Source: Candidatus Multivorans sp. (GTDB lineage: Bacteria; Acidobacteriota; Thermoanaerobaculia; Multivoradales; Multivoraceae). Taken from it: DNA of 64,000 nucleotides. Below the pieces are notes generated by a model that was not told the DNA's origin, made no database searches, and worked only from the letters and a program-made list of their open reading frames with translations. The stretch covers positions 1 through 64,000 of the forward strand of contig OZ245033.1 in assembly GCA_965224025.1 (NCBI GenBank), read 5' to 3'. The translations under genes were made by a program, and so were the position numbers. How positions within the stretch are numbered: position 1 is the stretch's first letter; every line of letters starts with the position of its first letter. Below, piece by piece: positions 4,045 through 38,655 of the stretch.

Positions 4045-4871
4045 GCCGGCCGCGGCCTCACCGCCAGTGCCACGTGGCGGCCCCACCGCCCCAGCGGCTC
4101 ACGCCGGGACAGCGCGCACGGGGCGTCCGGCGCCGGGGAGCCCGGGTGGTGCAGGATGCGGCCGCCCTCCAGCAGCACCGCGCAGTGCTCCACGACGGGC
4201 GCGCGCAGCCGCATGAGCAGCAGATCCCCGGGTCGCTCCGTGCCGCGCGCCAGCACCCCCCAGCCGGCCTCCGCCAGGCCGGCCAGGAACAGGTCCTTCC
4301 CGCGCCGCTGCCAGCCCCAGCCGTAGGCCATGGGCGGCACGTCGAAGCCTTGCGCGCGCAGCCAGTGGCCGGCCAGCGTCCAGCAGTCGGAGACTCCGTG
4401 CAGCCACGGGCGGCCCTGCCAGGGCGGACTCGCGGCCGGCAGCTTCGCCGCCGCCGGCCCCTGGGCGAACAGCGACGGGCCACCGGCGCGCGGAGAGCCG
4501 GCGCGGCGCGCCGCGTACGCGGCCGCGAGATCGATCGGCGGCCGGCTGCCGGGATCGGCGCCGCCCAGGGCTTCCTCGGCGAGCTCCGGGCCGACCACCG
4601 GCACGACGCCGCACGGCAGGCCCATCGCCACCTGCGCCGTCATGTCGGCCTTGGACGGGAACCGCTCGCCTCCGGGATGCGAATGCAGGACGACCGCCGC
4701 TTCGTCCCGGGGCGGCCAGACGTGCTCCACGTGGCCGCCTCCGGAGGTCAACGCGGAGAGCGGCCGGAAGCCGCCGCCGGCTGCCACGTAGCCCGCAGCT
4801 TCGTCGGGCCAGGCCGCCTCGAAGTACCGCCGCGCCTCGCTGTCGGCGGCCGCCGGCACCAGGTGGCTCAC
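4041..4871 (-). CDS. Tail assembly protein K (JAB/MPN + NlpC/P60)
   Basis: HSHP..PSKAD JAB motif; GRPWLHGVSDCWTL and HCAV NlpC motifs. GTG start overlaps the L stop. Confidence 0.88.
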   Translation of the reverse strand: MSHLVPAAADSEARRYFEAAWPDEAAGYVAAGGGFRPLSALTSGGGHVEHVWPPRDEAAVVLHSHPGGERFPSKADMTAQVAMGLPCGVVPVVGPELAEEALGGADPGSRPPIDLAAAYAARRAGSPRAGGPSLFAQGPAAAKLPAASPPWQGRPWLHGVSDCWTLAGHWLRAQGFDVPPMAYGWGWQRRGKDLFLAGLAEAGWGVLARGTERPGDLLLMRLRAPVVEHCAVLLEGGRILHHPGSPAPDAPCALSRREPLGRWGRHVALAVRPRPA

Positions 4872-5578
4872 CGCGGCCTCGCGGCGCCGCCGACGCCCAG
4901 GAAACCACCGAAGGGCAGCGCCGCCGGATCCGGGAAACGCAGCCGGCAGCCGGCAGGCGTGCCGCTGCAGTTGTCCTGGCTGCTGTCCGACGTCGGATTG
5001 TCCGAGACGTCGAACCGCGCCGCGCCCCGGTACGGGCACTGCGCCTTCGCGTAGTCCCACGACGCGCCGGTCCAGAGGCGGTACCGCCAGGGGCAGTACT
5101 CGCGGAGCACCTGCCGCCGGGGCAGGTGCAGGTGGACCAGCTCGAGCGGCGTGGTGAGTTCGAACTCGACCTCGGCGCGGGTCCGGGAGCGCTCCCGGCC
5201 AATCCACAGCATCTCCTCGTGGTACGCCGCGCTGTCCGCGTCGGCCGCTCCGTCGAGATGCCGGGCCAGTGTCTGTCGCCAGCGCAGGCGGTAGCCCAGC
5301 CAGTCGTCGCCGCGCGGATCGCCGGTGATCACCGGGTCGAGCCGGCCCAGGGTGAGCCGGGGAGAGCCGCCGCTCGAGCGCGCGCCGCCGCCGAAGCCGA
5401 GCCCGGACACGGCGATCGGCACGGGGTCGTAGCGCTCGCCGCCGAAGAGGATCGCCGTGCCGTCGGCCCGCGGACCGGGCGAGAACCGGAACAGGATCGC
5501 GTTCGCGTCGGTCTGGATCTCGAACAGGTCGACCACCGCGCCGGCGTCGAGGTCGAGGCGGGTGGCGAGATCAGGCAT
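4868..5578 (-). CDS. Minor tail protein L
   Basis: CPWRYR..C..C..GCRLRF..LPFGGF Cys-rich C-terminus typical of lambda gpL. Confidence 0.9.
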   Translation of the reverse strand: MPDLATRLDLDAGAVVDLFEIQTDANAILFRFSPGPRADGTAILFGGERYDPVPIAVSGLGFGGGARSSGGSPRLTLGRLDPVITGDPRGDDWLGYRLRWRQTLARHLDGAADADSAAYHEEMLWIGRERSRTRAEVEFELTTPLELVHLHLPRRQVLREYCPWRYRLWTGASWDYAKAQCPYRGAARFDVSDNPTSDSSQDNCSGTPAGCRLRFPDPAALPFGGFLGVGGAARPR

Positions 5579-5915
5579 ATCGCCGCTCCAGCGTCGCCTG
5601 GACGTTGTACACGCCGCTGCTGACGATCTCCGTCGACCACGAGACGCAGACCCACTTGCGCTGCGCGCTGTCCAGCGGCGACTGCCACAGGAACCGCTCG
5701 TGGCCGGCGCGGGCGGCGAAGAAGTCCACCAGGGTGTCGTGCGCCGCCTGGTCGAGCGCCTTCCACACCGCCCGCCACGAGCGCGCCAGGGCGTTCACGC
5801 CCTGGGCGGCGTCCTGGACGTGGCCGTCGCCCAGGCGCAGGCGGTCCACGAGCGGCTCGACCTGGACCGACGAGCCGACGGACAGCGGCGCGGTGGGCAG
5901 CGACGGCGTGGCCAT
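5571..5915 (-). CDS. Minor tail protein M (distal tail)
   Basis: LGDGHVQ..GVN..W and F.W..P motifs; lies between tape measure and L with overlapping start/stop codons. Confidence 0.85.
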   Translation of the reverse strand: MATPSLPTAPLSVGSSVQVEPLVDRLRLGDGHVQDAAQGVNALARSWRAVWKALDQAAHDTLVDFFAARAGHERFLWQSPLDSAQRKWVCVSWSTEIVSSGVYNVQATLERRYA

Positions 5916-8431
5916 CAGACGGAGTCTCCGTCCGGGTCGAGCGCGCCCAGCGGGCGGCGCTCCTCGCGCACGAACTCGAGGAACAGCGGGCGCAGGCCCG
6001 TCGCCACGCCGCGGCCCGCCTCGCGGCCCCACAGGGCGGCGTCGTCCGGGCGGCCGCCCATCGGCGCCTGGACGACCACCTCGACGCGCGGCGCGAAGAC
6101 GGGCGCGCGGCCGCCGGCGGCGGCGCCGACGCCCAGGCGGCCGCTCGGCAGCCGGCGCAGGGGAAGGATCGCCTCGGGGCCCGCCTCGCCCGCCAGGCCG
6201 CGGCGGCCGCCGCCGAACGAGAACTCCGCGCGGCGGTCGATCACGCCGCCGTAGGCGAACGCCTGGGGGGGCCTCTGTGAACGGATCGCCGCGATCTGCG
6301 CCGCGCCGGCGGCCAGGATCAGGCCCATCATCACCGGCCGCAGCCACGTCGGCTGGATCGTCGTGTCTGCCAGGACGTCCGTCGCGCCCTTGGCCGTTGA
6401 AACCGCCGCGCTCGCCAACGCCGCGGCCTGGTGCAGCCGGAAAGCCTTGGCGTTCGCGTTCGCGAACTGCCCGAGGCCGCCCGTGATTCGGCGCAGGGCC
6501 TCGTCCGCCACGCCGAGCGATCCCGCCAGGTCGGCCTGCTCGCCCGCGGCCTCACCGGACGCGGCCGACCCGGCGGACATCCAGCCCACGAACGCCTGCA
6601 TCCTGGCGTTTCGCGACTCCGCCTGGGCCTCCAACTCTTTCGTCAGCTTCCGCTCCGCCAGCGCCTCGGCCTCCAGGCCGGCGAGCACCTGCGGCGTGGC
6701 GTCCGCGTGCGCCCGGCGGACCTGCGCCAGCAGTTCGCGGGCCTCGCGCTCCTCCTCGATCACCTTCAGGGCTTCCAGTCCTCCCTGCCGCAGCCGCTCG
6801 TTCTCCTCGCGCAACAGCACGAGCGCGGCGGCCGACGCCTGCGCCGAGTCGGCGCGTTCGCGGTCCGCGGCCGCGGCGCGCTCCTGGGCCTCGCGTTCGC
6901 GGTCAGCGATTTTCCCCAGCCTGGCGATGCCCTCGCTCCGGATCGTCTCCGCGCGCCGGAGCAATCGCTCGCGCTGCTCGCCATCCGCCACCGCTTCGAT
7001 CTTTCTCACGCGGTCCTGGTAGTCGAGCTGAATCCGTTCGCGCGCAGTCGCGAACTCGCGCTCGAGACGCAACATCTCGCGCAGGCGTTCCGGATCCGGC
7101 TCCGCGGACGGATCCGGCGGCGCCGCGGCGCCGGACGGATCGATCTCGCCGGCGCGCTGCAGTTCCTCCCGCAGAATGTCGATCCGCGGCTGCAGCAGCG
7201 CGGCCAGCCGGCGGCCGATGATGGAGTCGGCGGTCACGCCGGCCCCCTCGGCCACGGCCTCCAGCTCGCGCACAAAGCCGCCAACCAGGTCGCGCATCTC
7301 CTGCTCGTCCATGCCGATCAGGTCACGGGCCGTCAGCGGATCCGAGTCCAGCTCGTACACCCTGACCGTCTGGCTCCGAATCCGCCTGGCCCGCGACATA
7401 CCCTCCGTCATCCGCTGCACCGTCGCGGCCACGAACCCCGACGTCTCCTCCAGCCCCTCGCGGAAGCTCTCCCGGATCTCGTTGCGCAGGGCCCTGAAGC
7501 TCGACCTGATGCCCGCTTCGACGCTCTCGTACGTCCTGTCCGTCCACTCACCCGACGCCAGGACCGCGTCAATCAGCCGCTCGGCGGTGATCTCGCCCTC
7601 GGACGCCAACTCACGCAAATTGGCCCTCGTCACGTCGATGTCGATCTGGCCCGATTCCCTGAGCTTCCGGAAGCCGATGATCAGCCCCTGCTGCACGCCC
7701 AGAAGATTTTCCATCACCGACCTCAGCTCGTCGCCCTGCAGCCTGCCCGAGGCCAGGCCCTGGGCAAACTGAATCAGGCCGGCCTGCGCCTCGCTGCCCA
7801 CGCTGCCGCCGATCGCGAGCTGCTTGTTCAGCAGCTCGACCACGCGGACGCTCTGTGACGCGGGGCGGTCGAGATGTTCGAGCGCAAGCGCCAGCCGGCT
7901 GTATGTCACCACCGTGCCGTCGATCGCCGTCCGCGTGCGCACCGAGACGTCCAGGAGCTGGGACCGCACCGCCGCGAGTTCAGCCTCCGACTCCGTCACC
8001 AGGCGCAGGCGGTTGTCGAGCTCCCGGTTCGCTTCCGCCGCGTCCAGCGCCGCGCCCCCCAGCTGCCGAAGGGACACGAGCAGGCCGCCGCCCAGACCCA
8101 GGCCGTAGGCGATCGCCCGCCCATGCGCGGCGAGAAACGCCGAAGCAAGGCCCCGGGTGCGCCGCGCCGCTCCCGCGGAGGCCCTGCCTGCCCTGTCGGC
8201 GGCCCGGGCCGCTCTGTCGACCGCGGCCGCCTGACGCGTCGACACCGTCGACACCACCTGGCCCTGGGCGCCGTACAGCTTCAGGGCGCCGGCCGCCTGT
8301 TTTGTCTCGCTGCTGGACCGCCGTACCGTCCCGGCGAGCCGGCCGACTCGCTTGTCCGCCGCGGTCACCGCGCCGACGAACCCCTTGGCGTCGGCCGTCA
8401 GGCGCAGCGCGAGGCGGTACTCAGCGGGCAT
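5915..8431 (-). CDS. Tail tape measure protein (838 aa)
   Basis: QFAQGLASGRLQGDELRSVMEN tape-measure domain, coiled-coil middle, C-terminal GLAGEAGPEAILPL. Confidence 0.92.
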   Translation of the reverse strand: MPAEYRLALRLTADAKGFVGAVTAADKRVGRLAGTVRRSSSETKQAAGALKLYGAQGQVVSTVSTRQAAAVDRAARAADRAGRASAGAARRTRGLASAFLAAHGRAIAYGLGLGGGLLVSLRQLGGAALDAAEANRELDNRLRLVTESEAELAAVRSQLLDVSVRTRTAIDGTVVTYSRLALALEHLDRPASQSVRVVELLNKQLAIGGSVGSEAQAGLIQFAQGLASGRLQGDELRSVMENLLGVQQGLIIGFRKLRESGQIDIDVTRANLRELASEGEITAERLIDAVLASGEWTDRTYESVEAGIRSSFRALRNEIRESFREGLEETSGFVAATVQRMTEGMSRARRIRSQTVRVYELDSDPLTARDLIGMDEQEMRDLVGGFVRELEAVAEGAGVTADSIIGRRLAALLQPRIDILREELQRAGEIDPSGAAAPPDPSAEPDPERLREMLRLEREFATARERIQLDYQDRVRKIEAVADGEQRERLLRRAETIRSEGIARLGKIADREREAQERAAAADRERADSAQASAAALVLLREENERLRQGGLEALKVIEEEREARELLAQVRRAHADATPQVLAGLEAEALAERKLTKELEAQAESRNARMQAFVGWMSAGSAASGEAAGEQADLAGSLGVADEALRRITGGLGQFANANAKAFRLHQAAALASAAVSTAKGATDVLADTTIQPTWLRPVMMGLILAAGAAQIAAIRSQRPPQAFAYGGVIDRRAEFSFGGGRRGLAGEAGPEAILPLRRLPSGRLGVGAAAGGRAPVFAPRVEVVVQAPMGGRPDDAALWGREAGRGVATGLRPLFLEFVREERRPLGALDPDGDSV

Positions 8432-8447
8432 TTGCTAGGGTTCCCCC

Positions 8448-8564
8448 ATGTGGGGGTTTGTCATCATGACGCTGTACGCGGCAGTAATCGGCGGCACCGC
8501 CTGCGCGCTGGTGATCCGGGCCGTCATCGCCGCCCTCTCGTTCGCCGCCGACCAGCAACGCTGA
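8448..8564 (+). CDS. Possible 38-aa hydrophobic membrane peptide (moron-like)
   Basis: MWGFVIMTLYAAVIGGTACALVIRAVIAALSFAADQQR fills the only gap in the tail operon, on the opposite strand. Confidence 0.35.
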   Translation: MWGFVIMTLYAAVIGGTACALVIRAVIAALSFAADQQR

Positions 8565-8579
8565 GGCGGGCGGGCTCGG

Positions 8580-8948
8580 TCACCGCCACCGCGGCTGCGC
8601 GTCGAGCGCCGCGGCCTCCATCTCGCGCAGCAGCTCGAATACCCGCCGCCAGCGCAGCGAGCGGCCCGACGCCTCCTTGCCCAGGCCGTCCGCGGTCACG
8701 CCCCGCACCGCGGCCCGGGCGCCCGCGTAGTCCAGGCCCAGCAGCCCGCCGGCAGGGCCGATCCGCCACTGGGTCGCGCAGGCCGAGAACGCTCGCGCGG
8801 CGTCCCACGCCGAAGGTAGCACCCAGCACGCCGGCTCCTCGCGGACAACAGCCCCTACGTCGATGCCGAACGCCCGCGCGTCTTCCTGTCGGTCGTCGCG
8901 GCCGCGGCGAGCGACGAACCGCCGGCCGACCGCGCGGGCGTTTTTCCC
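8580..8948 (-). CDS. Tail chaperone GT extension (DUF1799-like), reached by -1 frameshift
   Basis: TQWR..GLDY..EMEAAAL motif; the -1 frame is open from the slippery site GGGAAAA (8948-8942) to the stop at 8580. Confidence 0.8.
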   Translation of the reverse strand, partial: GKNARAVGRRFVARRGRDDRQEDARAFGIDVGAVVREEPACWVLPSAWDAARAFSACATQWRIGPAGGLLGLDYAGARAAVRGVTADGLGKEASGRSLRWRRVFELLREMEAAALDAQPRWR

Positions 8949-9262
8949 GGCAGCCCGAGCGAGAAGCGCTCGAAAGCGGCGGCCACGCCGCGCGCGAAGT
9001 AGGCGATCCCGGCCAGCTTCTCGACGTTCGCGGGCGAGAAATCGAGCGGCTTGCCGTCGTGGCCCTCGATGCCGTCCCAGCCGGCGAGGACGCAGAGCAT
9101 GAACTGCGGGTCGCCTTCGAGAGCCGCGGCCCGGACGGCCGCGGGGGCCGGCAGCCGGAAGTGCGCCGTGAATTCCCGCTCCTCCGGTCCGCCGGAAGCG
9201 GGCACCGAGATCGTGACCGCCGTCTCGTAGACGGCGTCGGGGTCGGCCAGCCTGAACGTCAT
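8855..9262 (-). CDS. Tail assembly chaperone G
   Basis: EFTAHFR..GWDGI..DGKPLDFS..N motif; position between tube and tape measure genes. Confidence 0.8.
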   Translation of the reverse strand: MTFRLADPDAVYETAVTISVPASGGPEEREFTAHFRLPAPAAVRAAALEGDPQFMLCVLAGWDGIEGHDGKPLDFSPANVEKLAGIAYFARGVAAAFERFSLGLPGKTPARSAGGSSLAAAATTDRKTRGRSAST

Positions 9263-9290
9263 GCGATTCCTCCTCGACCAGGGGGTCCGC

Positions 9291-10301
9291 TCACTGGAAC
9301 GTCAACTTCACTTCGTCGTTGCCGCTTTCCGGCACCATCGTCAGCGTCGCCTCGATCGTGGCCACGCCCTGGTCGTCGCCGTAGCGCGGCTCGGAGAGCA
9401 CGACCTGCGGGGCGTCGAGCACCACGATCTTGCCGCGGTTCCCGGCCGCGAGCATGCTCTTCGCCGAGTCGGTGAAGCCGTGCGCGAGCTGCAGCGCGTC
9501 CTTGGTCGCCTTCTGCGCCAGGCGGAACGGGTTCCAGGCCAGCAGCTTCTCGGCGTCCATCGTCACGCTGCCCGTCGTCTCGCGGCCGGTGATCGGCACG
9601 TCGTTGTCGGCGCCCACCACCTCGCGGTGCACCGGTTGCGCGCCGAGGGCGACGGACAGCCGGTGGAGCGCCAGGTCGTGCGTGCCGTGGATCAAAAACG
9701 TGGACGCCGCGTTCGAGCCCGCGACGGCCTCCTGCCAGCCGACGTAGCCCCCCGGGTCGATCTGGGTTATGGAGCTCGGCGAGGCCCATAGCCCCGTGAA
9801 CTCGAACCGGATCCGGGGGATTTCCTTGCTGGCGAACTCCAGCGTCCAGGTGCCGCGGGCGCCGAGCAGCCTGTGCTGCTGGCCGTCCATGTTCCAGATC
9901 AGCGTCACCGAGGAGCCGGAGGCGTTCGTCTCCGGCGCGTACTCGACTTTCGAGTTGTTGGTGTCGGCCACGGCCGCCTTGCCGGTCGTCTCCTTCATCC
10001 CGCACGCCTTGAGCAGGCCCCCGAACTTCGGCGCCGAGATCGCCTCGGTGGCGGGCGTGAAGCCGCCCCCGCTCGTCAGCTCCACGCTGAAGGCCAGCCG
10101 CACGTGCGAGTCGACCTGGACCGGGTCGCTGGCCCCGAAATACGGCCACATCAGCTCCCGGCTCACGGTGCCGCCGTCGAGCGCCGTCAGATCCGGCTCG
10201 TGCACCTCGATCGCGTCGGCGCCGGTGAAGGCGGCGGGCGCCACGCCGTAGGCCGCCTCCGGCTTGTAGAGCAACACCTTCTTCATCGCCAACAACGTCA
10301 T
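9291..10301 (-). CDS. Phage tail tube (major tail) protein
   Basis: K.E..YG..P start, PYFGA, LLKACG, GARGT..F.F.G motifs of siphophage tube proteins; GAGGAGG RBS. Confidence 0.85.
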   Translation of the reverse strand: MTLLAMKKVLLYKPEAAYGVAPAAFTGADAIEVHEPDLTALDGGTVSRELMWPYFGASDPVQVDSHVRLAFSVELTSGGGFTPATEAISAPKFGGLLKACGMKETTGKAAVADTNNSKVEYAPETNASGSSVTLIWNMDGQQHRLLGARGTWTLEFASKEIPRIRFEFTGLWASPSSITQIDPGGYVGWQEAVAGSNAASTFLIHGTHDLALHRLSVALGAQPVHREVVGADNDVPITGRETTGSVTMDAEKLLAWNPFRLAQKATKDALQLAHGFTDSAKSMLAAGNRGKIVVLDAPQVVLSEPRYGDDQGVATIEATLTMVPESGNDEVKLTFQ

Positions 10302-10314
10302 CGCATCCTCCTCC

Positions 10315-10797
10315 TCATGCTCCGTCCGCGGAAACTAGGCGGTCGGCGGCGTAGGCGTCGGCCCACCAGGCGGCGCCGTCCTTGCCCGGCGCCAGGGCTG
10401 CGCCGCGCACGAAATCGACGGGCGTCATCGCGCCCGGAGGGATCCAGCCGAGCAGCGCGGCGTCCACTCGCGCCCGCAGCCGGTCCAGGGCATCCTGGGC
10501 CGAGAACGGCGCGCCGGCGCGGCGATCGGCCACGCGGGACAGCACGACCACCTCGGCGCGGCGCAACTGCCTCGTCCTGCCGATGATGTCGCTCGACGGC
10601 CCGGTCTCCGCAGACCAGACCAGCCACAGGCCGTCGCGGCGGGCGCCGGCGCGGGCGGCCTCGTCGACCGTCGTCGCGTCGATGTCCACGTCCTCGCCGA
10701 GCGGCGGCGGCGCCTCGCCGTCCACCGTGAGGCTCCGGGGCTGGAACGTCTCGAGACGCTCGCGCCAGGCGTCCAGGGACATGCGGCCCTCGCTCAT
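10315..10797 (-). CDS. Tail terminator protein (Mu gp37-like)
   Basis: V.AALLGW.P..WW.D.Y C-terminal motif; directly upstream of the tube gene. True start is the ATG at 10797. Confidence 0.7.
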   Translation of the reverse strand: MSEGRMSLDAWRERLETFQPRSLTVDGEAPPPLGEDVDIDATTVDEAARAGARRDGLWLVWSAETGPSSDIIGRTRQLRRAEVVVLSRVADRRAGAPFSAQDALDRLRARVDAALLGWIPPGAMTPVDFVRGAALAPGKDGAAWWADAYAADRLVSADGA

Positions 10798-10892
10798 CCG
10801 ATCGCCCCGCGGAAGCCGCGCAGGCCGGCGCGCGTCAGCGTCGGAGTCGCCGGCGCGATCAGCGGCACGGGCTGCTCGTCCGTGGTGGTCAC
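10794..10892 (-). pseudogene. 3' remnant of head-tail adaptor gene (Mu gp36-like)
   Basis: ..PVPLIAPATPTLTRAGLRGFRGAIG* ends in an ATGA overlap with the terminator gene. Upstream it runs into the antisense of a + strand gene. Confidence 0.4.
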
Positions 10893-11337
10893 GCACGAAG
10901 ACGCGGACCGCATCCGGGCCGATTTCCACGAGCGCTACCAGGCCGCCAAGGACTACCAGGCCAAGCGCGAAGCCATCCGGCGACGTCAAGCCGAGCGCTA
11001 CCGCGCCTACCTCGAGCAGCGGGCCAAAAAGGACCGGGAATGGGTCCGCCGACGACGCATCCGCGACCTCGAACGCGAGCGCGGCGAGGCGAGAAGTGCC
11101 GCCGCGGCAAAGTACCGAGCAGACGAGCTCGCCTTCACCCACCAGTGGAACCGAAACCGCGGCAAAGCGATCGCCGGCGTCCGTTCCGAATGGAATGAGC
11201 GGTGGACCGCGGGCAAGGCGGCGCTCGGCGGCGCCTACGAGGAAGCGGTAACCCGGATCGATGTCGCACACCAGGCAAAGCTCGACGCGCTTGACGAGAG
11301 CGAGGCGGGCGACAGCGAGGCAACACGGGAAGGGTGA
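10882..11337 (+). CDS. Charged helical phage protein, probably 5'-truncated
   Basis: Coding-like composition, ends 1 nt before gemA, no upstream room for RBS or promoter. Confidence 0.55.
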   Translation: MVVTHEDADRIRADFHERYQAAKDYQAKREAIRRRQAERYRAYLEQRAKKDREWVRRRRIRDLERERGEARSAAAAKYRADELAFTHQWNRNRGKAIAGVRSEWNERWTAGKAALGGAYEEAVTRIDVAHQAKLDALDESEAGDSEATREG

Positions 11338-11338
11338 G

Positions 11339-11746
11339 ATGACCGCCCCGATCACGGCGTCGCAGGTTCGCGCCATCCACACCGCCAGGAGCGCCGCCGG
11401 CGTCGACAGGGAGACCTACGAACGGATGCTCGACGAGGGGTGGGGCGCGAAGAGCTGCACGGATCTGAACATCCGCGACGCCAGCGAACTGCTGCGCCGC
11501 CTGGGCGTGCCCAAGCCGAAGCGCCGGCCGAGGGGCCGGCCGCCGGCCCGACTCCCGGCCGGCGTCGTCCGTATGGTAACCGCTTCTCAGCGGCGCCTGA
11601 TCGACGACCTGCGCGCCGAGCTTGGTTTGACCGAGGCGGCGCTCGCGACGTGGCTGGAGCGCAGCCAACGGCTGACAAGCGTCCGCACGAGCGCAGAGGC
11701 GACCAGGGTCATCGAAGGCTTGCGTGCCTGGAAGGGGCGGCGGTGA
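11339..11746 (+). CDS. GemA / Mu gp16 / DUF1018 family regulatory protein
   Basis: IH.AR..GVD.ETY..ML..G.KSC.DL and EA..VIEGL..W motifs. Confidence 0.8.
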   Translation: MTAPITASQVRAIHTARSAAGVDRETYERMLDEGWGAKSCTDLNIRDASELLRRLGVPKPKRRPRGRPPARLPAGVVRMVTASQRRLIDDLRAELGLTEAALATWLERSQRLTSVRTSAEATRVIEGLRAWKGRR

Positions 11747-12792
11747 GGCACGGGTCAGACTTGGTGCTCCTGTTCGACGGGACCTGGAACGAGGCGGACG
11801 CGGTGCGGCCGACGAACGTCTGCCGCACCTGGCATGCGGTCAAGCAAGGCGTCAAGACGTACTACGACCCCGGCGTCGGCACGGGTCGATGGGACCGTTT
11901 CCGCGGCGGCGCGTTCGGCCTCGGGCTGCAAAAAAACGTCGAGGATGCGTATGCCTGGCTTGTTGAAGTCTGGGATCCGGACGACAGGATCTGGGCTCTC
12001 GGCTACAGCCGCGGCGCCTATACCGCCCGCAGCCTCGCCGGCCTGATCGGACTGTGCGGCATCCCCTCCGTCCCCGAGTGGGACAGGGCGACGAGGAAGC
12101 GAGCGGCCGACTCTCGGCGAGTCGCCCGGCAGGCGATGGCGGTATATCGATCCGGCAAACAGCGAATGGCGGTCGCCGAACAATTGCTCGGCCGGCACGC
12201 CCCGATTCGATTTGTCGGAGTCTGGGACACTGTCGGAGCTCTGGGCGTCCCCGAGCCGCTGGACTGGCTGTCTGCTGGACGCCACCGCTTCCACGACGTC
12301 TCTTTGGGCGACCACGTCGAGATCGCATGCCACGCCCTCGCGATCGACGAAGCCCGTCGCCCGTTCCGTCCGACACTCTGGCGCAACGCGCCGGGGGCGC
12401 GACAGCAACTGCACCAGGTCTGGTTTCCCGGCGTGCACAGCGACGTCGGCGGCGGCCGGGCCGTGCGGGGGCTGTCGGACATTGCCCTGAACTGGATGTG
12501 GCAGCACATCGCGGCGGCCGGCCTGTCTGTCCACCCTCGAGAGGGTGACCATCCCGACCCAGACCCGCTGGCGCCGATCGGCGTTTCGCGGGGCGGCCTC
12601 TATCGGGTGTGGCCGCCGTTCTGTCGCCCTGTGCCGCACACCGGCGCCGCCGTTCAGTCGCTACACCCGAGCTGCGTCGAGCGGCTCGATGCGGACCCGG
12701 ACTGGGACCCCCGCCTCGCGGCCATGCTCGATGCCGGCGCAGTGGCGATCAGCGCTAGACCCCTTTCAGTCGCCTCGCGTGGCGCCGACTGA
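11743..12792 (+). CDS. DUF2235 (Tle1-like alpha/beta hydrolase, putative phospholipase)
   Basis: FDGTWN, GVGT, GYSRGAYTAR, GVWDTV, HALAIDE.R, WFPGVHSDVGGG; GTG start overlaps the gemA stop. Confidence 0.9.
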   Translation: MRHGSDLVLLFDGTWNEADAVRPTNVCRTWHAVKQGVKTYYDPGVGTGRWDRFRGGAFGLGLQKNVEDAYAWLVEVWDPDDRIWALGYSRGAYTARSLAGLIGLCGIPSVPEWDRATRKRAADSRRVARQAMAVYRSGKQRMAVAEQLLGRHAPIRFVGVWDTVGALGVPEPLDWLSAGRHRFHDVSLGDHVEIACHALAIDEARRPFRPTLWRNAPGARQQLHQVWFPGVHSDVGGGRAVRGLSDIALNWMWQHIAAAGLSVHPREGDHPDPDPLAPIGVSRGGLYRVWPPFCRPVPHTGAAVQSLHPSCVERLDADPDWDPRLAAMLDAGAVAISARPLSVASRGAD

Positions 12793-13000
12793 TTCCCGCC
12801 GCGTCCTCCAGCTCCTCGGCGCTCCCCACGCATCGCGCCAGCTCTGACCGCTCGGCCGCCGTCACGGTGCGCTCCACAGCCGCCTCGGTTGGCACGCGCA
12901 TGCCGGCGCACCGTCGTCCGAGCTCCTGCGCCACCCGTCCCGGGTCCACCACTCCTGCGTCGCTGAGCGCCGCCACGAGCCGCGCCACACTCACCCGCAT
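12755..13000 (-). CDS. Small Mor/C-like transcription activator
   Basis: G.RVP dimerisation-like segment and C-terminal HTH (ELEDAAGISRRHARRL); context next to gemA. Confidence 0.5.
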   Translation of the reverse strand: MRVSVARLVAALSDAGVVDPGRVAQELGRRCAGMRVPTEAAVERTVTAAERSELARCVGSAEELEDAAGISRRHARRLKGV

Positions 13001-13083
13001 TTACCCGCATCCACCCGCATCTACCCGTCCCTTTCTCGCACTAACTCTCGCACAACTCGCACGGTTTCTCGCACTAACCGACT
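12993..13083. repeat. Putative transposable-phage end: 10-bp tandem ACCCGCAT units and four CTCGCAC repeats
   Basis: TTTCTCGCACTAAC at 13032 and 13065 plus two partial copies; abuts the break in IS110 homology. Confidence 0.6.
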
Positions 13084-13637
13084 ATGTCCAAGGAGCCAGT
13101 CGGCCATGGCGGCAAGTCCCTTGCCGCTGTGGTCGAACGCCCGCTCCCCCCTCACCTTGCCGTCCCGACCCAGCAAACACACACGTGGTGGGTTTCGGAC
13201 CCCCAGTCCACGCCGGCGAACCACGTCCTGATCATCTCGTCCTCCTTCTCCCTTGCGGTAGTGTTGCCTGGTCGGCATGCCGCGTTGCCTGCCCGTACCT
13301 GTACTGGTGCTCTAAGGCACTGACTCTCCACTGGGCGTCCAACGCGGCAAAGCAGCCAGGGCACGGGTCCCAGCCAGGTGCTCGAAGCACAGTGCGCCGG
13401 TGGTCGCTCCTGGCTGCTTGCCGACTTTCCTTCAGTGACTCCGGCAGGCCGGAGACGCAACCGACCGGCGGTCTCGGCTGCGGAAGCTGCCGGTCCGGCG
13501 GAAAACGGCAGACCGTTTCCCGCCGGACCTTGGAAAACCGGCAAGCCGGTTTCCCACAGCTACCGCAGCCACGACGGCTACTGGTCCATTCCACCTCTCT
13601 CAACGACACGCCAGAATGCATCCCGGAAAGGTACAGG
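13083..13637 (-). mobile_element. Truncated IS110 copy: full non-coding end plus ~50 frameshifted transposase codons
   Basis: Near-identical to 35423-35975, with a 2-nt insertion near 13175; same GG|TGCGCCGG junction. Confidence 0.92.
13279..13420 (-). ncRNA. Bridge RNA core (orphan copy)
   Basis: One substitution (13349) relative to 35617-35758; all four guide segments identical. Confidence 0.7.
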
Positions 13638-33571: not shown

Positions 33572-34240
33572 ATGAAAGTCCGCGGCGCCGCCCTGCCCGC
33601 GGCCGCCGTGGCGGTCCGCCTCCTCTCCCAGACCCTCACCGCCTCCTACCGCCTGCACCGCCTGGAAGGCGCCGGGCACCTCGACCGCGTCCTCGACCCG
33701 CCGGCCATGCTCGCGTGCTGGCACGAGCAGTTGGCGCTCTCCCTGCTCCTCGTCCGCCGGCGGCTGCTGCCGGCCGGCGGACCAGTGTCCATCCTCTCCA
33801 GCCACTCCGCCGACGGGGCACTGGCGGCGCGGGTCGCCCATGCCTGGGGCATCCGCGTCACCCGCGGCTCGACCTCCCGGGGCGGCCGGGAGGCGGCGCT
33901 CACCCTCTACCGCGAGCTCGTCAAACACCGGTCGACGCTGCTGCTCATGCCCGACGGTCCGCGTGGACCGGCGCGTACGCCGAAGGCCGGGAGCATCGTC
34001 CTGGCGGCCATGTCCGGCGCGCCGATCGTCCCCGCCGGCCTCGCCGCGTCACGCAGCCTGAGGTTGAGGAGCTGGGACCGCATGATCGTCGGCGCCCCGT
34101 TCACGCGAGTGGCGGTCGCGGTCGGGGAACCGATCGTGCTCGATCGCGGGTCTACCGACGACCAGCGGGAAGAGGCCCGGCTCGAACTCGGCGCCCGGCT
34201 CGACGACCTGACCGCGCGGGCCGGCCGTCTGCTCCCTTAG
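33572..34240 (+). CDS. DUF374 / lysophospholipid acyltransferase family protein
   Basis: WH, S..DG, RGST.RGG, PDGPRGP, SWDR..PF motifs. Confidence 0.85.
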   Translation: MKVRGAALPAAAVAVRLLSQTLTASYRLHRLEGAGHLDRVLDPPAMLACWHEQLALSLLLVRRRLLPAGGPVSILSSHSADGALAARVAHAWGIRVTRGSTSRGGREAALTLYRELVKHRSTLLLMPDGPRGPARTPKAGSIVLAAMSGAPIVPAGLAASRSLRLRSWDRMIVGAPFTRVAVAVGEPIVLDRGSTDDQREEARLELGARLDDLTARAGRLLP

Positions 34241-34319
34241 AGCAGGACTGGGTGCGCCCACTGGGACTCTCCACCCTTTAGCAAGTGTGTTTTGGGGAGG
34301 CTGCTGCGGGTCAGGGAGG

Positions 34320-35573
34320 TCATGCGACCTGGGCATGGCATCGCTTGTTGGGGTCGAAGAGAGTTCGGTCTCGGAGCATGGCGCAGGCGACGCCGAGGAG
34401 TCGGTCGACGAGTTGTCTGATGGCGCGTCCGTGCGTCTTTCCCTGGGCTTTCATGGCGTCGTACTTGGCGCGGCTGATCGGGTCATGCTCGATGGCGACT
34501 CGTCCCCAGTGATAGACGGCGTCGCTGAGGTGTTCGTTGGCGGCGAGTCGTCGCATGACGATGAGCTTCTTGCCGGACTTGACGGTCACCGGCGCCACTC
34601 CGCAGAGGCAACGCAGTGCCTCGTGGTCTCTGCGGCCCAGGCTTTGATCGGCCTCGGAGAGCAGGGTGGCGAGGCCGACCTTGCCGAGTCCGGGCAGCGA
34701 CCTGAGGATGGCGGCGTCGCTCGGCTTAGGGGAGTCGTCGTCGTTTTCCCGTTGGGCCGGGGCCTCGAGTGCGCGGGTCATCCGCTCCAGCCGCTTGTCG
34801 GCGTCGGCGAGTTGGCGGCAGACGGTGTCGAGCACCGGCCGGAGGAGTCCTATGTGTTCGACGGCGGCCTTAACGGTGTCCGGGGAAACGGCGATCGGCT
34901 CGGCCCGCAGTTGATCGCGCAGTTGGGCGGAGGTCAGGCGCCGGATGCGGTGTTCCTTGAGCAGTTTGGCGAGCGTGGCTTCGCGCAGCCGTCGAGCCTT
35001 GCCGGGGGTCGGCGCCAGTCGCCACAAGGCCAGCGCGAAGGGCGCCGACACCTCGTTCTTGACCACGGCGAGAAACTGCGGGTAGTAGCGCCAGAGCTGG
35101 TCGCGGACCTGGTTCTCCAGGCGGTTCTTCTGGTTGACCAACTGCTTGCGGGCGCGGGACACCTCGCGCAGCATGACGATGGCGGCATCGGATGGTTGCA
35201 CGCGGTTCAGGCACTCGGGGTCGGTGCGAAGCGCGGCGGCGAGCACCCGTGCATCGCGGCGGTCATCCTTGGCGCCGGCGACGGAGAAGCGGTCCCTGAA
35301 GCGGTCGAGCTGCTTGGGGTTGATCGAATGGACGGCGAAACCCCGCTCCAGGAGAGTCTCGACCACCGGTCCGTGCGGCACCTCGATGGCGACGCCGATC
35401 TCGTCCGGAGACGTCGGTCGGGTATGTCCAAGGAGCCAGTCGGCCATGGCGGCAAGTCCCTTGCCGCTGTGGTCGAACGCCCGCTCCCCCCTCACCTTGC
35501 CGTCCCGATCCAGCACACACACGTGGTGGGTCTCGGACCCCCAGTCCACGCCGACGAACCACGTCCTGGTCAT
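34320..35573 (-). CDS. IS110 recombinase/transposase (417 aa)
   Basis: DEDD: GVDWG, IEVP, KDDRRDA; C-terminal SLPGLG..CGVAPVTVKSGK; AGGAGG RBS. Confidence 0.95.
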   Translation of the reverse strand: MTRTWFVGVDWGSETHHVCVLDRDGKVRGERAFDHSGKGLAAMADWLLGHTRPTSPDEIGVAIEVPHGPVVETLLERGFAVHSINPKQLDRFRDRFSVAGAKDDRRDARVLAAALRTDPECLNRVQPSDAAIVMLREVSRARKQLVNQKNRLENQVRDQLWRYYPQFLAVVKNEVSAPFALALWRLAPTPGKARRLREATLAKLLKEHRIRRLTSAQLRDQLRAEPIAVSPDTVKAAVEHIGLLRPVLDTVCRQLADADKRLERMTRALEAPAQRENDDDSPKPSDAAILRSLPGLGKVGLATLLSEADQSLGRRDHEALRCLCGVAPVTVKSGKKLIVMRRLAANEHLSDAVYHWGRVAIEHDPISRAKYDAMKAQGKTHGRAIRQLVDRLLGVACAMLRDRTLFDPNKRCHAQVA

Positions 35574-35616
35574 CTCGTCCTCCTTCTCCCTTGCGGTAGT
35601 GTTGCCTGGTCGGCAT

Positions 35617-35758
35617 GCCGCGTTGCCTGCCCGTACCTGTACTGGTGCTCTAAGGCACTGACTCTCCACTGGGCGTCCAACGCGGCGAAGCAGCCAGGGC
35701 ACGGGTCCCAGCCAGGTGCTCGAAGCACAGTGCGCCGGTGGTCGCTCCTGGCTGCTTG
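35617..35758 (-). ncRNA. Bridge RNA core: target-binding and donor-binding loops
   Basis: Two stems (35688-98/35747-57 and 35617-25/35678-86), each with an internal loop and apical hairpin; loop strands match the target and donor junctions. Confidence 0.82.
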
Positions 35759-36162
35759 CCGACCTTCCTTCAGTGACTCCGGCAGGCCGGAAACGAAACC
35801 GACCGGCGGTCCCGGCTGCGGAAGCTGCCGGTCCCGCGGAAAACGGCAGACCGTTTCCCGCCGGACCTTGGAAAACCGGCAAGCCGGTTTCCCACAGCTA
35901 CCGCAGCCGCGACGGCTACTAGTCGATTCCACCTCTCTCAACGACCCACCAGAATCCACCCGAGAAAGGTACAGGTGCGCCGGCCGTTGCGCGGGCCTTC
36001 TGGCCCGCGACTGGGTGCGGCCCTCTGGCCGGCATCCGGCGCGAAGCGCCGGCGTCTGGCTCACCGTGAAACCCGCGACAATGCTAGAATCCGACGGCTT
36101 TCGCCTTGCCTTCCGTGCTGGGCGGGGTCTTGAACCATGTCCAGGCATCGTCTCTAATCGCC

Positions 36163-38655
36163 ATGTCTCTCCGCTCCGGGCTTACCGCGCTGCTCATCGC
36201 GGCCGCGCTGATCGCCGCGCCCGGGGAGGCGATCGTCTACGTCACGCCGACCGACGAGTCGTTGGTGGACCGGTCGCCGGTGATCGTCTTCGGCGAGATT
36301 CTGGCCGCGGAACCGGCGCCGGTCGACGGACTGCTGTCGACCGACTTCATGTTCCAGGTCGAAGACGTGCTGAAGGGGTTCGTCCCGGGCAGCATCATCG
36401 TCGTTCGCCAGCCGGGCGGCCGCAGGTCGGACGGGCTGGTCGGTTCGGTCATGGGCTTGCCGACTCTGGCCGAGGGCGACCGCGTGCTGCTCTTCCTCGA
36501 TCCGGCGAACGCCGTGTACCGGACGGTCGAGTTGTCCCTCGGCATGTTCTTCGAGGTGCCGGTGCGCGGCGGCACGGTGCTGCTGCGCGAGGCGTCGCTG
36601 CGCGAAGACATGTCCCCGCCCGGCAGCCCGGCGGCTCGGCGGCAGCCAAACCAGCCACGCGAGGCGGAGCGCTTCCGGCGCTGGATCGCCGACCGGGCCA
36701 GCGGCCTCGAGCGGGCGGCCGACTACTTCGCGCCTGAACTGGGCGAGAACCCGGCGGCCGTCGCCGAGGCGTTCCGGCTCACCGTGTCACCGGGCGAGTG
36801 CGACCGCGTGGGCGTGCCCGTCCGCTGGCGGGAGTTCGACCGCAACCGCGGCGTCGGTCTGGTGGTGCAGGCCGGAGGTCAGCCCGGTGTGCCGGGCGGC
36901 GGCATGGCCCAGGTACTTGCCGGTATGCGGGCCTGGAACGGCGATCCGCGGAGCCGCACGCGACTGATCAGCCTGGGCAGGTCGAACGAGGAGTTCTCGC
37001 TCAAGGTCGACGAGCAGAACTCGATCAGCTTCGAGGATCCGCACGACGAGATTGCGGGTTCCTTCAATCCGCGGCTCGGCGGCATTCTGGCCATCAACTG
37101 GGTGTTCTTCTACTGCGGCCAGGTGACCGAGCCGCACCGGATTCCGGGAGGCGGATCGCGGCAGGCTCTGCCGATCGTGGAGTCGAACATCACGACGCAG
37201 GACGGGTTCGAGGACTGGTTGGCCGCCAGTGCGGACCCCCGCCGCGACTTCGAGGAGATCATCGGCCACGAACTCGGCCACGCGCTGGGGATCAACCACG
37301 CCTGCGACCCGTCGGGGGGCTCGCCTTGCGATGAGGTGACGAACGAGGCCCTGATGCGCGCGAATGTCCACGGGGACGGGCGCGGCGCCGCGCTGAGCCG
37401 GGACGACCGGAACGCCGTGCGCGCCCTCTACCCGGAGATCGGCCCGGTGGGCCCGGTGGCGCCGGCGGCGGCGACCGACCTGACGGTCTCCGCGATCAGC
37501 CAGAACGAACTCGAACTCCGGTGGCGGGACCGCTCCGGCGACGAGACCGGCTTCGACATCTACGAGCGGATGGTCGACAGCGACTTCGAGCGCATCGCCA
37601 CCCTGGAGCGGAACAGCACTTCGGTCGTGATCCAGAACATCCCGCCCGCGACCTACCGCGCCTACCAGGTCGTGGCGCGGAACAACCGCGGCAGCTCCGA
37701 GCCGACACCGGAAGCGGGCGCCACGACTCTCGCTGGAGTGGCCGCCTGCGTGGAGGACGGCGACACGTTGTGTCTGAATGAGGGTCGCTTTCGGGTCGAA
37801 GTGCAATGGGAGACCGACAAGGAAAGCGACCGGGGCGATGCCGAGCCCTTGACCAACGACTCGGGCGATTTCTGGTTTTTCTCTCCGGACAACATCGAAC
37901 TCGTGGTCAAGGTCCTGGACGGGTGCGCCTTCAACGAACGCTTCTGGGTGTCCGCCGGCGGCTTGACCGACGTGAAGGTCATCATGACCGTGATCGACTC
38001 CGCGACCGGAGTCGCCGCGACGTACTACAACCCGCCGGGCACTCCCTTCCTGCCGGTTCAGGACAACGAGTCCTTCGCCGTCTGCTCCCAGGGACAGAAC
38101 CTGTACGGTCAAAGCCGGTACCTGCTGCCGGCTGGAGAGATGGAGTCCGTGCGCGGCGGCATGAACCGGGCGTCCCGGTTTGGTGAGCCGCTTACCGGAT
38201 CGCTCCGTCCCGGTTGGGCCGGGCTGCCCCAGGAAGAAGGCGGCGCCTGCGAGGTCGACGATCTCACGCTCTGCCTCGAAGGCGGCCGCTTCGCGGTCCA
38301 CGCGCGCTGGGAAACGGAAGACGGCCGCGGTGACGCCACGGCCTGGCCGCTCACCCGGGACACCGGCCTCTATTGGTTCTTCGGTCCGAACAACGTCGAG
38401 ATGGTGATCAAGGTGCTCGACGGGTGCGCGCTCAACGGCCACCGCTGGGTGTTCGCGGCTGGACTGACGGACGTGGCCGTGACGATGACGGTCATCGACA
38501 GTGAGACCGGCGAGAAGAGGGCCTACGAGAACCCCGCCGGCACCCTGTTCCAGCCGATCCAGGACGCGAAGGCGTTTTCCTGTTCGGCGCCGGCGCCGAC
38601 GGCTGCGGCAGGCGCTCGAGATCCTGGTCCGCATCCACGCGAAGCAGCGCGGTAG
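36163..38655 (+). CDS. Secreted matrixin-like zinc metalloprotease with FN3 and two C-terminal 'WFF..N.E..VKVLDGC' domains
   Basis: Signal peptide, HELGHALGINH, ALM Met-turn, W.D.S..E.GF FN3 motif. Confidence 0.85.
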   Translation: MSLRSGLTALLIAAALIAAPGEAIVYVTPTDESLVDRSPVIVFGEILAAEPAPVDGLLSTDFMFQVEDVLKGFVPGSIIVVRQPGGRRSDGLVGSVMGLPTLAEGDRVLLFLDPANAVYRTVELSLGMFFEVPVRGGTVLLREASLREDMSPPGSPAARRQPNQPREAERFRRWIADRASGLERAADYFAPELGENPAAVAEAFRLTVSPGECDRVGVPVRWREFDRNRGVGLVVQAGGQPGVPGGGMAQVLAGMRAWNGDPRSRTRLISLGRSNEEFSLKVDEQNSISFEDPHDEIAGSFNPRLGGILAINWVFFYCGQVTEPHRIPGGGSRQALPIVESNITTQDGFEDWLAASADPRRDFEEIIGHELGHALGINHACDPSGGSPCDEVTNEALMRANVHGDGRGAALSRDDRNAVRALYPEIGPVGPVAPAAATDLTVSAISQNELELRWRDRSGDETGFDIYERMVDSDFERIATLERNSTSVVIQNIPPATYRAYQVVARNNRGSSEPTPEAGATTLAGVAACVEDGDTLCLNEGRFRVEVQWETDKESDRGDAEPLTNDSGDFWFFSPDNIELVVKVLDGCAFNERFWVSAGGLTDVKVIMTVIDSATGVAATYYNPPGTPFLPVQDNESFAVCSQGQNLYGQSRYLLPAGEMESVRGGMNRASRFGEPLTGSLRPGWAGLPQEEGGACEVDDLTLCLEGGRFAVHARWETEDGRGDATAWPLTRDTGLYWFFGPNNVEMVIKVLDGCALNGHRWVFAAGLTDVAVTMTVIDSETGEKRAYENPAGTLFQPIQDAKAFSCSAPAPTAAAGARDPGPHPREAAR

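Follow-up and report, generated by a model that had tools for sequence, protein, structure and literature searches.

An IS110-group insertion sequence with a readable bridge RNA and a CC core at a REP-like repeat of Candidatus Multivorans

The window analysed here is a stretch of 64,000 nucleotides at the start of contig OZ245033.1 (assembly GCA_965224025.1) of Candidatus Multivorans (Acidobacteriota, Thermoanaerobaculia), a host whose genome of 5.14 Mb has a G+C content of 67.6% and is assembled in 3 contigs. An IS110-family element of 1712 bp, counting the CC of both junctions, occupies window positions 34264-35975 on the minus strand. This element is very probably an insertion sequence (IS) of the IS110 group that is moved by bridge-RNA-guided recombination, as judged from its guides, the sites that it occupies and the way in which the two change together among its relatives. 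Such RNA-guided elements became known in 2024, and the window element joins them. A preliminary description of the window, made from the letters alone, had already located the junctions, both target guides and both donor guides, and all of its coordinates proved correct when read on the minus strand.

The element boundaries were set by 12 full-length copies in the same genome (97-100% identity), in which homology stops exactly at 34264 and 35975. On the minus strand the element opens with CC-TGTACC and closes with GTGGAGAGT-CC. The left junction reads ...CCGGCGCA + CC (35975-35974) + TGTAC, and the right junction reads GTGGAGAGT + CC (34265-34264) + CAG. The parts of the element and its flanks, in the order in which they are met on the minus strand, are listed with the evidence on which each was placed.

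35976-36010, minus strand: left target flank, a repeat resembling the repetitive extragenic palindromic (REP) type and ending GGCCGGCGCA; junction and repeat search
35974-35975, minus strand: core dinucleotide CC of the left junction (target-left / IS left end); junction reading, empty sites having a single CC
35574-35973, minus strand: left-end non-coding region, 402 nt with the core; sequence and fold
34320-35573, minus strand: recombinase gene, 417 aa and stop; Pfam, NCBIfam and structure alignment
34264-34265, minus strand: core dinucleotide CC of the right junction (IS right end / target-right); junction reading
34240-34263, minus strand: right target flank, starting CAGT; junction reading

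About 56 nt follow the recombinase gene at the right end, and the window copy as a whole is situated between open reading frames (ORFs) ending at 34240 and starting at 36106. The non-coding region lies upstream of the gene, and neither subterminal nor end-to-end inverted repeats were found among the 25 longest of the 38 inverted-repeat pairs of the element. This is the arrangement of the IS110 group, unlike that of the IS1111 type, which is described as having its non-coding region after the gene and as carrying subterminal inverted repeats (PMC11187229).

The recombinase carries a RuvC-like DEDD domain at residues 7-165 (Pfam DEDD_Tnp_IS110, PF01548, 9.6e-35) and a Tnp domain at residues 288-371 (Pfam Transposase_20, PF02371, 2.4e-12), and it scores 177.2 bits, with a cut-off of 140, in the NCBIfam model NF033542, 'IS110 family RNA-guided transposase'. 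The only solved structures that it matched were those of IS621 (PDB 8wt6, E 7.6e-12, in two stretches) and ISCro4 (PDB 9t56, E 4.3e-10, through the Tnp domain). Residues D10, E64, D104, D107 and S333 fall on IS621 columns with acidic residues and serine. The catalytic residues reported for IS621 are D11, E60, D102, D105 and S241 (Hiraizumi et al. 2024, PMC11208158), and the mapping of the recombinase residues to these presumes a 2-residue offset of the PDB chain 8wt6. DEDD and Tnp domains with an aligned serine are what characterises a recombinase of the IS110 group. At 417 aa the protein is ~90 aa longer than the 328-residue IS621 chain, with about 31% and 26% identity over the two aligned stretches (counted from the alignment), and it belongs to the same recombinase family as ISCro4 while being only distantly related to it.

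Upstream of the gene, the left-end region contains the segments expected of a bridge RNA.

35610-35762, minus strand: bridge RNA core, with an outer stem (35762-35760 with 35612-35610) around two loop units; RNAalifold consensus and pair counts on 30 sequences
35689-35756, minus strand: target-binding unit, with a basal stem (35756-35744 with 35700-35689), an internal loop and a hairpin (35728-35716); consensus fold
35730-35738, minus strand: left target guide CCGGCGCAC, the top-strand letters of the left target plus the first core C
35705-35712, minus strand: right target guide GCUGGG (35712-35707) with handshake bases AC (35706-35705); match to the flank and complementarity
35617-35686, minus strand: donor-binding unit, with basal stems (35686-35677 with 35626-35617), an inner 3-bp stem and a hairpin (35658-35645); consensus fold and inverted repeat I12
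35660-35669, minus strand: left donor guide GTGGAGAGTC (as RNA GUGGAGAGUC), matching the final 9 nt of the right end and the first C of the core
35634-35642, minus strand: right donor guide GUACAGG (35642-35636) with handshake bases UA (35635-35634); match to the left end

The target guide pair fits the flanks CCGGCGCA-CC-CAG, the target site written in full being GCCGGCGCA-CC-CAGT, and the donor guide pair fits the ends of the element as joined. The target loop precedes the donor loop, and both lie ahead of the recombinase gene. Both left guides carry top-strand letters and both right guides the reverse complement of the top strand, which is the strand rule of IS621. The two-loop architecture of the IS621 type that had been proposed for this RNA was borne out by the consensus fold, the loop order and the strandedness of the guides.

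The 403-nt region upstream of the ORF, which the preliminary description had singled out for folding, has a folding energy of -220.8 kcal/mol (z = -7.17) that none of 100 shuffles equalled. A consensus structure computed with RNAalifold from an alignment of 30 distinct sequences has an outer stem enclosing two units of stem, internal loop and hairpin, with all four guides unpaired. Over the 34 named pairs, 98.4% of cells were paired and 13 pairs had changed on both sides; these values were reached by 0 of 500 shuffles, and slid controls were 32-43% paired. The basal stem of the target unit, which holds an 11-nt perfect inverted repeat (I21), had changes on both sides in 7 of its 12 pairs. Rfam gave no family match in 33800-36400 at E up to 1, and its library may lack a bridge-RNA family.

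A covariance model built from the homologues (R1) matches window positions 35595-35784 with 179.4 bits. Its 16 matches in the own genome comprise 15 inside IS copies and one solo fragment. When the model was run on a sample of 150 other Acidobacteriota genomes, 4 had a match; that in G033 was weak (26.7 bits) and was left out of the comparison that follows. The elements of the remaining three genomes, G088, G035 and G017, had not been used in building the model. Their guides fit their flanks at 9/9 left and 5/5 right positions in G088, 11/11 and 4/5 in G035, and 9/9 and 3/5 in G017. Such a model, together with guide/flank covariation, had been put forward earlier as a check on the bridge RNA, and both the stems and the guides were found to covary, with three new elements fitting.

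Two further observations were made with this model. The solo match lies at G000:C1:4322353-4322541 (minus strand, 152 bits), corresponds to IS positions of about 160-360 and has no adjoining recombinase gene. The elements of G035 and G017 have two target-loop-like units in tandem ahead of the donor loop (L110:1349-1681 and L111:1362-1687, respectively). The upstream unit fits the actual left flank (11/11 and 9/9), the unit adjoining the donor loop has a different left guide (GAUGCAUUC), and both units read CC-AAAAC on the right. From their sequence, these left ends may encode a bridge RNA with two target loops.

The address read by the target loop is abundant in the host genome. The 13-mer CCGGCG[CT]ACCCAG was found in 44 further copies free of insertions (40 with C, 4 with T), against 2.6 expected from base composition, and the shorter CCGGCG[CT]ACC has 226 occurrences. 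The site in which the 15 left and 15 right junctions lie reads CCGGCG(C/T)A-CC-C(A/G)G(T/C). A perfect hairpin of 5-7 bp stands directly upstream in 28/44 empty and 10/15 occupied sites, usually in the form GCCGGCC-AGAA-GGCCGGC or GCCGGCG-GGGA-CGCCGGC, and there the 3' arm of the hairpin runs right up to G(C/T)A. The target is short, abundant and imperfectly palindromic, as REP-type repeats are, and the numbers of empty sites and adjoining hairpins confirm the earlier claim that an abundant palindromic repeat is targeted. Because the site follows directly on the hairpin, the element is addressed to the 3' shoulder of a REP-like repeat, much like IS621 and ISPpu10, and insertions therefore enter many equivalent and presumably mostly harmless sites. 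From G000:C1:298600 onward, after the IS copy at 296889, two further empty target repeats stand in tandem (...GGCCGGCGCACCCAGTGCCGGAATGCCGGCCGGAATGCCGGCGTACCCAG...), so the repeat forms local clusters.

All copies in the genome sit at this address. At the 15 left junctions the sequence is GCCGGCG(C/T)A-CC without exception (11 C, 4 T), and a 16th, in a left-end fragment, is the same. The 15 right junctions read CC-CAGT (9), CC-CAGC (4) or CC-CGGT (2). All 12 full copies have CC at both junctions, and every one of the 44 empty sites has it a single time, so that the core is shared by site and element. The outer flanks differ between copies, which makes these independent insertion sites. Copies at sites unrelated to the guides, which the preliminary description had named as an outcome that would speak against it, were not seen at any of the 15 left and 15 right junctions. 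Four of the full-length copies are 100% identical over 1712 bp. By tblastn, the complete 417-aa protein is encoded by six copies (98.8-100% identity), and the alignment of a further four spans residues 1-416; a frameshift near codon 20 affects one copy (2021057/2021110). Two copies have a deletion of ~75-80 nt inside the left end, one is split in two pieces, and there are two small left-end fragments. The same search revealed no other IS110 paralogues in the genome, only copies of the window element.

Together with the common insertion site of the 15 copies, relatives of the element put the match of guides and flanks well beyond chance. A scan of one genome per species gave 178 relatives, of which the best 80, with 56-93% protein identity, were fetched. 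These best 80 are mostly from assemblies of Candidatus Multivorans, other Thermoanaerobaculia and Vicinamibacterales, with one from Azospirillum canadense and one from a gammaproteobacterial assembly. The left end starts CC-TGTAC in 78/80, and the CC core read in the window is common to all of these 78. The right end, GTGG(AG/GA/GG)AGT-CC, was found inside the locus in 66/78, and its two variable letters are mirrored in the left donor guide. While the donor side is nearly fixed, the target side varies, with 26 distinct guide pairs and nine target families in 90 elements (the 78 relatives and the 12 own copies). The left guide matched its cognate left flank at a mean of 8.40/9 positions (n=90) versus 5.40 in cross-class comparisons (n=650), and the right guide matched its cognate right flank at 4.10/5 (n=78) versus 1.87 (n=550). 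Guide-read targets and actual flanks are set side by side for five families, with the left guide as written and the right guide reverse-complemented.

Guides GGGGUCCC + CC-UUUUC; flanks GGGGTC-CC-TTTTC
Guides GCGAUCCC + CC-AUUUG; flanks GCGATC-CC-ATTTG
Guides GUGGACGC + CC-UCCCC; flanks GTGGACG-CC-TCCCC
Guides GUGAUAGCCC + CC-UUGUC; flanks TGATAGC-CC-TTGTC
Guides UUCGUCCCC + CC-CUCCC; flanks TTCGTC-CC-CTCCC

Single changes are followed as well: in L053-L057 an A-to-G change in the right guide (CC-CGGUU) is mirrored by CC-CGGT flanks. Guides covary with target flanks among the relatives, as they do in the IS110 group, and this natural covariation suggests that the recombinase would be programmable. 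The right end of L085 and of L102 (Azospirillum canadense) runs straight into a further copy, whose left end starts with CC-TGTAC; these loci could represent either head-to-tail tandem copies or an assembled circle joint.

The bases that follow the right guides gave a further line of evidence. In IS621, the dinucleotide that follows each right guide on its 3' side is reported to pair, once the first strands have been exchanged, with positions 6-7 of the partner DNA, and it has to be unable to pair with the guide's own DNA (PMC11208158). In the window element, the AC after GCUGGG is complementary to the donor GT before the core and not to the target CA, and the U after GUACAGG is complementary to the target A before the core and not to the donor T. 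Across relatives, the base after GUACAGG tracks target position 7 through four Watson-Crick states.

Handshake U with target A: target family of the window element
Handshake G with target C: seven target families
Handshake C with target G: the GTGGACG family
Handshake A with target T: two out-of-sample genomes

The bases AC and T had been likened to handshake pairing in the preliminary description, and that likeness held, with complementarity to the non-cognate DNA and covariation among relatives.

The left target guide varies within the genome itself. Position 7 of this guide (35732) is C in ten and U in five of 15 left ends, and the same C/U change at 35732 was seen in contigs of three public runs. 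It is the position that separates the target subfamilies GCA-CC-CAGT and GTA-CC-CAGC; U would pair with both (U-A or a U-G wobble), and C with GCA only. GTA sites make up 4/44 of the empty sites. In the own genome alone, U-copies stood at GTA sites in 2/5 cases versus 2/10 for C-copies (Fisher p = 0.56). When a sister genome was included, the figures were 4/9 for U-copies versus 2/28 for C-copies (p = 0.022), for copies that are related and not independent and whose RNA can act in trans. The association of C and U with GCA and GTA sites is suggestive, and we consider it possible, if doubtful, that a bridge RNA has here been caught retargeting at guide position 7. Taken with its relatives, the element would then belong to a natural series of at least nine retargetings that share one constant CC-core donor.

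The course of a transposition event can be proposed by analogy with IS621 and ISPpu10. The element would excise as a circle, joining GTGGAGAGT-CC to TGTAC, and the circle joint would assemble a promoter from two halves that lie at opposite ends of the integrated element.

34279-34284, minus strand: TTGCTA, putative -35 half of the junction promoter; in-silico end joining
35966-35971, minus strand: TACCTT, putative -10 half of the junction promoter; in-silico end joining

The joined ends read TTGCTA-17 nt-TACCTT, with the -35 half 19 nt before the core and the -10 half 4 nt after the core start. The best promoter match, which is a match to consensus only, fell at the same position in 24/29 distinct junctions, and a promoter scan of the integrated element found no sigma-70-like site over 34200-36100. 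The junction promoter would give both the left-end RNA and the recombinase mRNA. The first loop of the RNA would then read the chromosomal site and the second the joined ends, as sequence and covariation indicate, and the DEDD/serine recombinase, acting as a tetramer, would carry out strand exchange at the CC core. Once the first strands have been exchanged, AC and U, which follow the right guides on the 3' side, would pair with the other DNA in the 'handshake', and RNA and recombinase together would insert the circle at the CC core of an unoccupied repeat.

Several results weigh against this account or narrow the evidence for it. The junction promoter is weak, at 7/12 consensus positions, and a terminator-like hairpin (35816-35802) lies between it and the bridge RNA. 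No joint of right to left end was seen in the repeat-broken assembled contigs of four public runs (X1-X4), in which the parts without contig cover carry no information. The 23 public runs listed included no RNA run, which speaks neither for nor against expression. The guide positions given by the preliminary description stand, with two small corrections. The left guides pair with the first core C only; beyond it the RNA has U in the target loop, where a U-G wobble is possible, and A in the donor loop. GCUGGG was correctly recognised in place and sense as the right target guide, and it pairs perfectly only with CAGC sites (4/15); at CAGT sites (9/15) its first G forms a G-T wobble. Two C-guide copies stand at GTA sites (827740 and 3853365), and these need a C-A mismatch or RNA from another copy. 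Among the relatives, L074 and L103 had no left-end start and were dropped, and 12/78 loci were too short for the right end. The right ends that were found had been located by the 9-mer of the left donor guide, so the match between this guide and the end is partly by construction. L085 and L102, with an IS copy as right neighbour, have no target flank to score. The right flank of L101 scored 0/5 (there were two right-end candidates, of which the first was taken), and one site of the L049 class reads CC-TCGTC versus the guide's CC-CAGTC. The handshake rule has exceptions in L106 (a wobble) and G088 (a mismatch).

Three other explanations were weighed. A hairpin repeat such as the one that holds the target could be recognised by a protein through its shape, and the recombinase might find the repeat alone, the upstream region being a structured 5' leader with incidental similarity to the flanks. 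We regard this as very improbable, since nine target families show joint changes of guide and flank at a protein identity of 56-93%, the three out-of-sample elements fit as well, and the matches are split over two strands in precisely the way described for IS621. Still harder to credit is the idea that the guide-like segments are captured pieces of REP-like repeat without function, although the genome is full of GCCGGC-rich repeats and CCGGCG[CT]ACC alone occurs there at the frequency given above. The donor loop matches the element's own ends and no repeat, the target segments flank a conserved hairpin in opposite senses, and the same layout, with covarying loop stems, recurs in relatives whose targets are not REP-like.

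The bridge RNA might also be genuine and the copies in this genome immobile fossils, with the shared target a record of past activity. The damage to some copies (one frameshift, one split by a large insertion, two left-end deletions and two small fragments) and the lack of a circle junction in the assembled contigs agree with this. The six copies that encode the full protein, the four more over residues 1-416, the four copies that are identical over their whole length, and the position of the copies at independent sites with different outer flanks speak against it, and we consider it improbable.

The closest published counterpart is IS621 of Escherichia coli, for which a bridge RNA, a REP target and a CT core are reported (Durrant et al. 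2024, PMC11208160). The window element resembles it in a recombinase with DEDD and Tnp domains and in an RNA in the left end whose target loop precedes its donor loop. Left guides directed to the bottom strand and right guides to the top strand, a 2-nt core common to target and donor, handshake bases 3' of the right guides and the REP repeat target are also shared, and the promoter that forms at the circle joint of IS621 may have its counterpart in the putative junction promoter. It differs in its core, CC versus the CT reported for the CHARACTERISED systems IS621, IS622 and ISPpu10, in a 402-nt left end with an extra module of ~120 nt, in its acidobacterial host, and in being known here from sequence alone. 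ISPpu10 of Pseudomonas putida is likewise described as an IS110 element with a bridge RNA, a CT core and one REP family as target. Its account further reports that the RNA can act in trans, that the left target lies in the REP stem-loop and that many equivalent extragenic sites are used (bioRxiv 10.64898/2026.03.19.712850). The stem-loop requirement of ISPpu10 is reported from experiment, whereas here the position of the site relative to the hairpin (28/44 empty sites) is what is seen. IS622 / ISCro4 of Citrobacter rodentium is presented as a close relative of IS621 with a CT core that has been engineered for human cells (bioRxiv 10.1101/2025.05.14.653916). Elements of the IS1111 type with a seekRNA, such as ISPa11, are reported to target the Pseudomonas REP (Siddiquee et al. 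2024, PMC11187229), and they share with the window element a DEDD transposase, a target specified by RNA and REP targeting.

The preliminary description had presented the element as a distinct programmable recombinase, and in this respect it overrated the novelty, as NCBIfam already names the protein an RNA-guided transposase and REP targeting has been published for IS621 and ISPpu10. A natural CC core was not found in the literature search; CC-core orthologues may be listed in the supplements of Durrant et al. and Perry et al., and we therefore make no claim that the core is new. What the element adds is that a bridge RNA could be read correctly from raw sequence alone, including guides, core and handshake bases, and that the rules of IS621 hold in a distant recombinase of the Acidobacteriota with a CC core. 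Its main value is a clean natural covariation series with a CC core and guide polymorphism. Builders of bridge recombinases can draw from the clade a single donor design with many natural target loops, a non-CT core and guide polymorphism within a genome. For host biology, this is an ordinary, recently active insertion sequence landing in a repeat family.

One of the IS copies, the split one, lies partly in the window and has the same kind of target site as the others.

Window 13083-13637, minus strand: split copy, IS positions 1-553, including the bridge RNA at 13257-13446
G000:C1:5044243-5045405, minus strand: split copy, IS positions 550-1712, near the other end of contig C1

Both break points carry ~4-5 nt of IS sequence, and the intruding DNA has inverted repeats of GTGCGAGA(A) motifs. 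The part of this DNA at window positions 1-13082 has phage tail genes (tape measure, tail tube, tail terminator, and a JAB+NlpC/P60 protein) and a gene for a Tle1-like phospholipase. The intruder looks like a transposable prophage or other large element that has entered an IS copy, and the contig breaks within this intruder.

In two public runs of one sample (X1 and X2), one contig each joins 34233 to 36068, skipping 1834 bases that correspond to the IS and the neighbouring repeat cluster. This contig was considered as a precise empty site and rejected on account of 15 differences in 134 letters, which make it a diverged relative without the whole block at this locus.

The left end has 402 nt in the window element and its Thermoanaerobaculia relatives versus about 235 nt in the Vicinamibacterales relatives, and its 5' part contains an accessory module with similar segments elsewhere in the genome.

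35798-35920, minus strand: accessory module of ~120 nt in the 5' part of the left end, with two hairpins of the GGGAAACCGG..CCGGUUUUCC type; genome comparison
G000:C1 around 1301954, 2474162, 3672584, 4048788 and 3408859: module-like segments (L018-L021, L026)

Relatives with a 235-nt left end lack the module, and three own copies have lost part of it, so that it does not belong to the conserved bridge RNA. With 86-88% identity it matches 4-5 genome segments that lie beside IS21-type genes and outside all copies of the window element, and from these matches two unrelated IS families seem to share a non-coding module. In L020, the module-like segment lies just beyond a frameshifted IstB_IS21 gene, beside repeated GGAAAGTGAGCC motifs.

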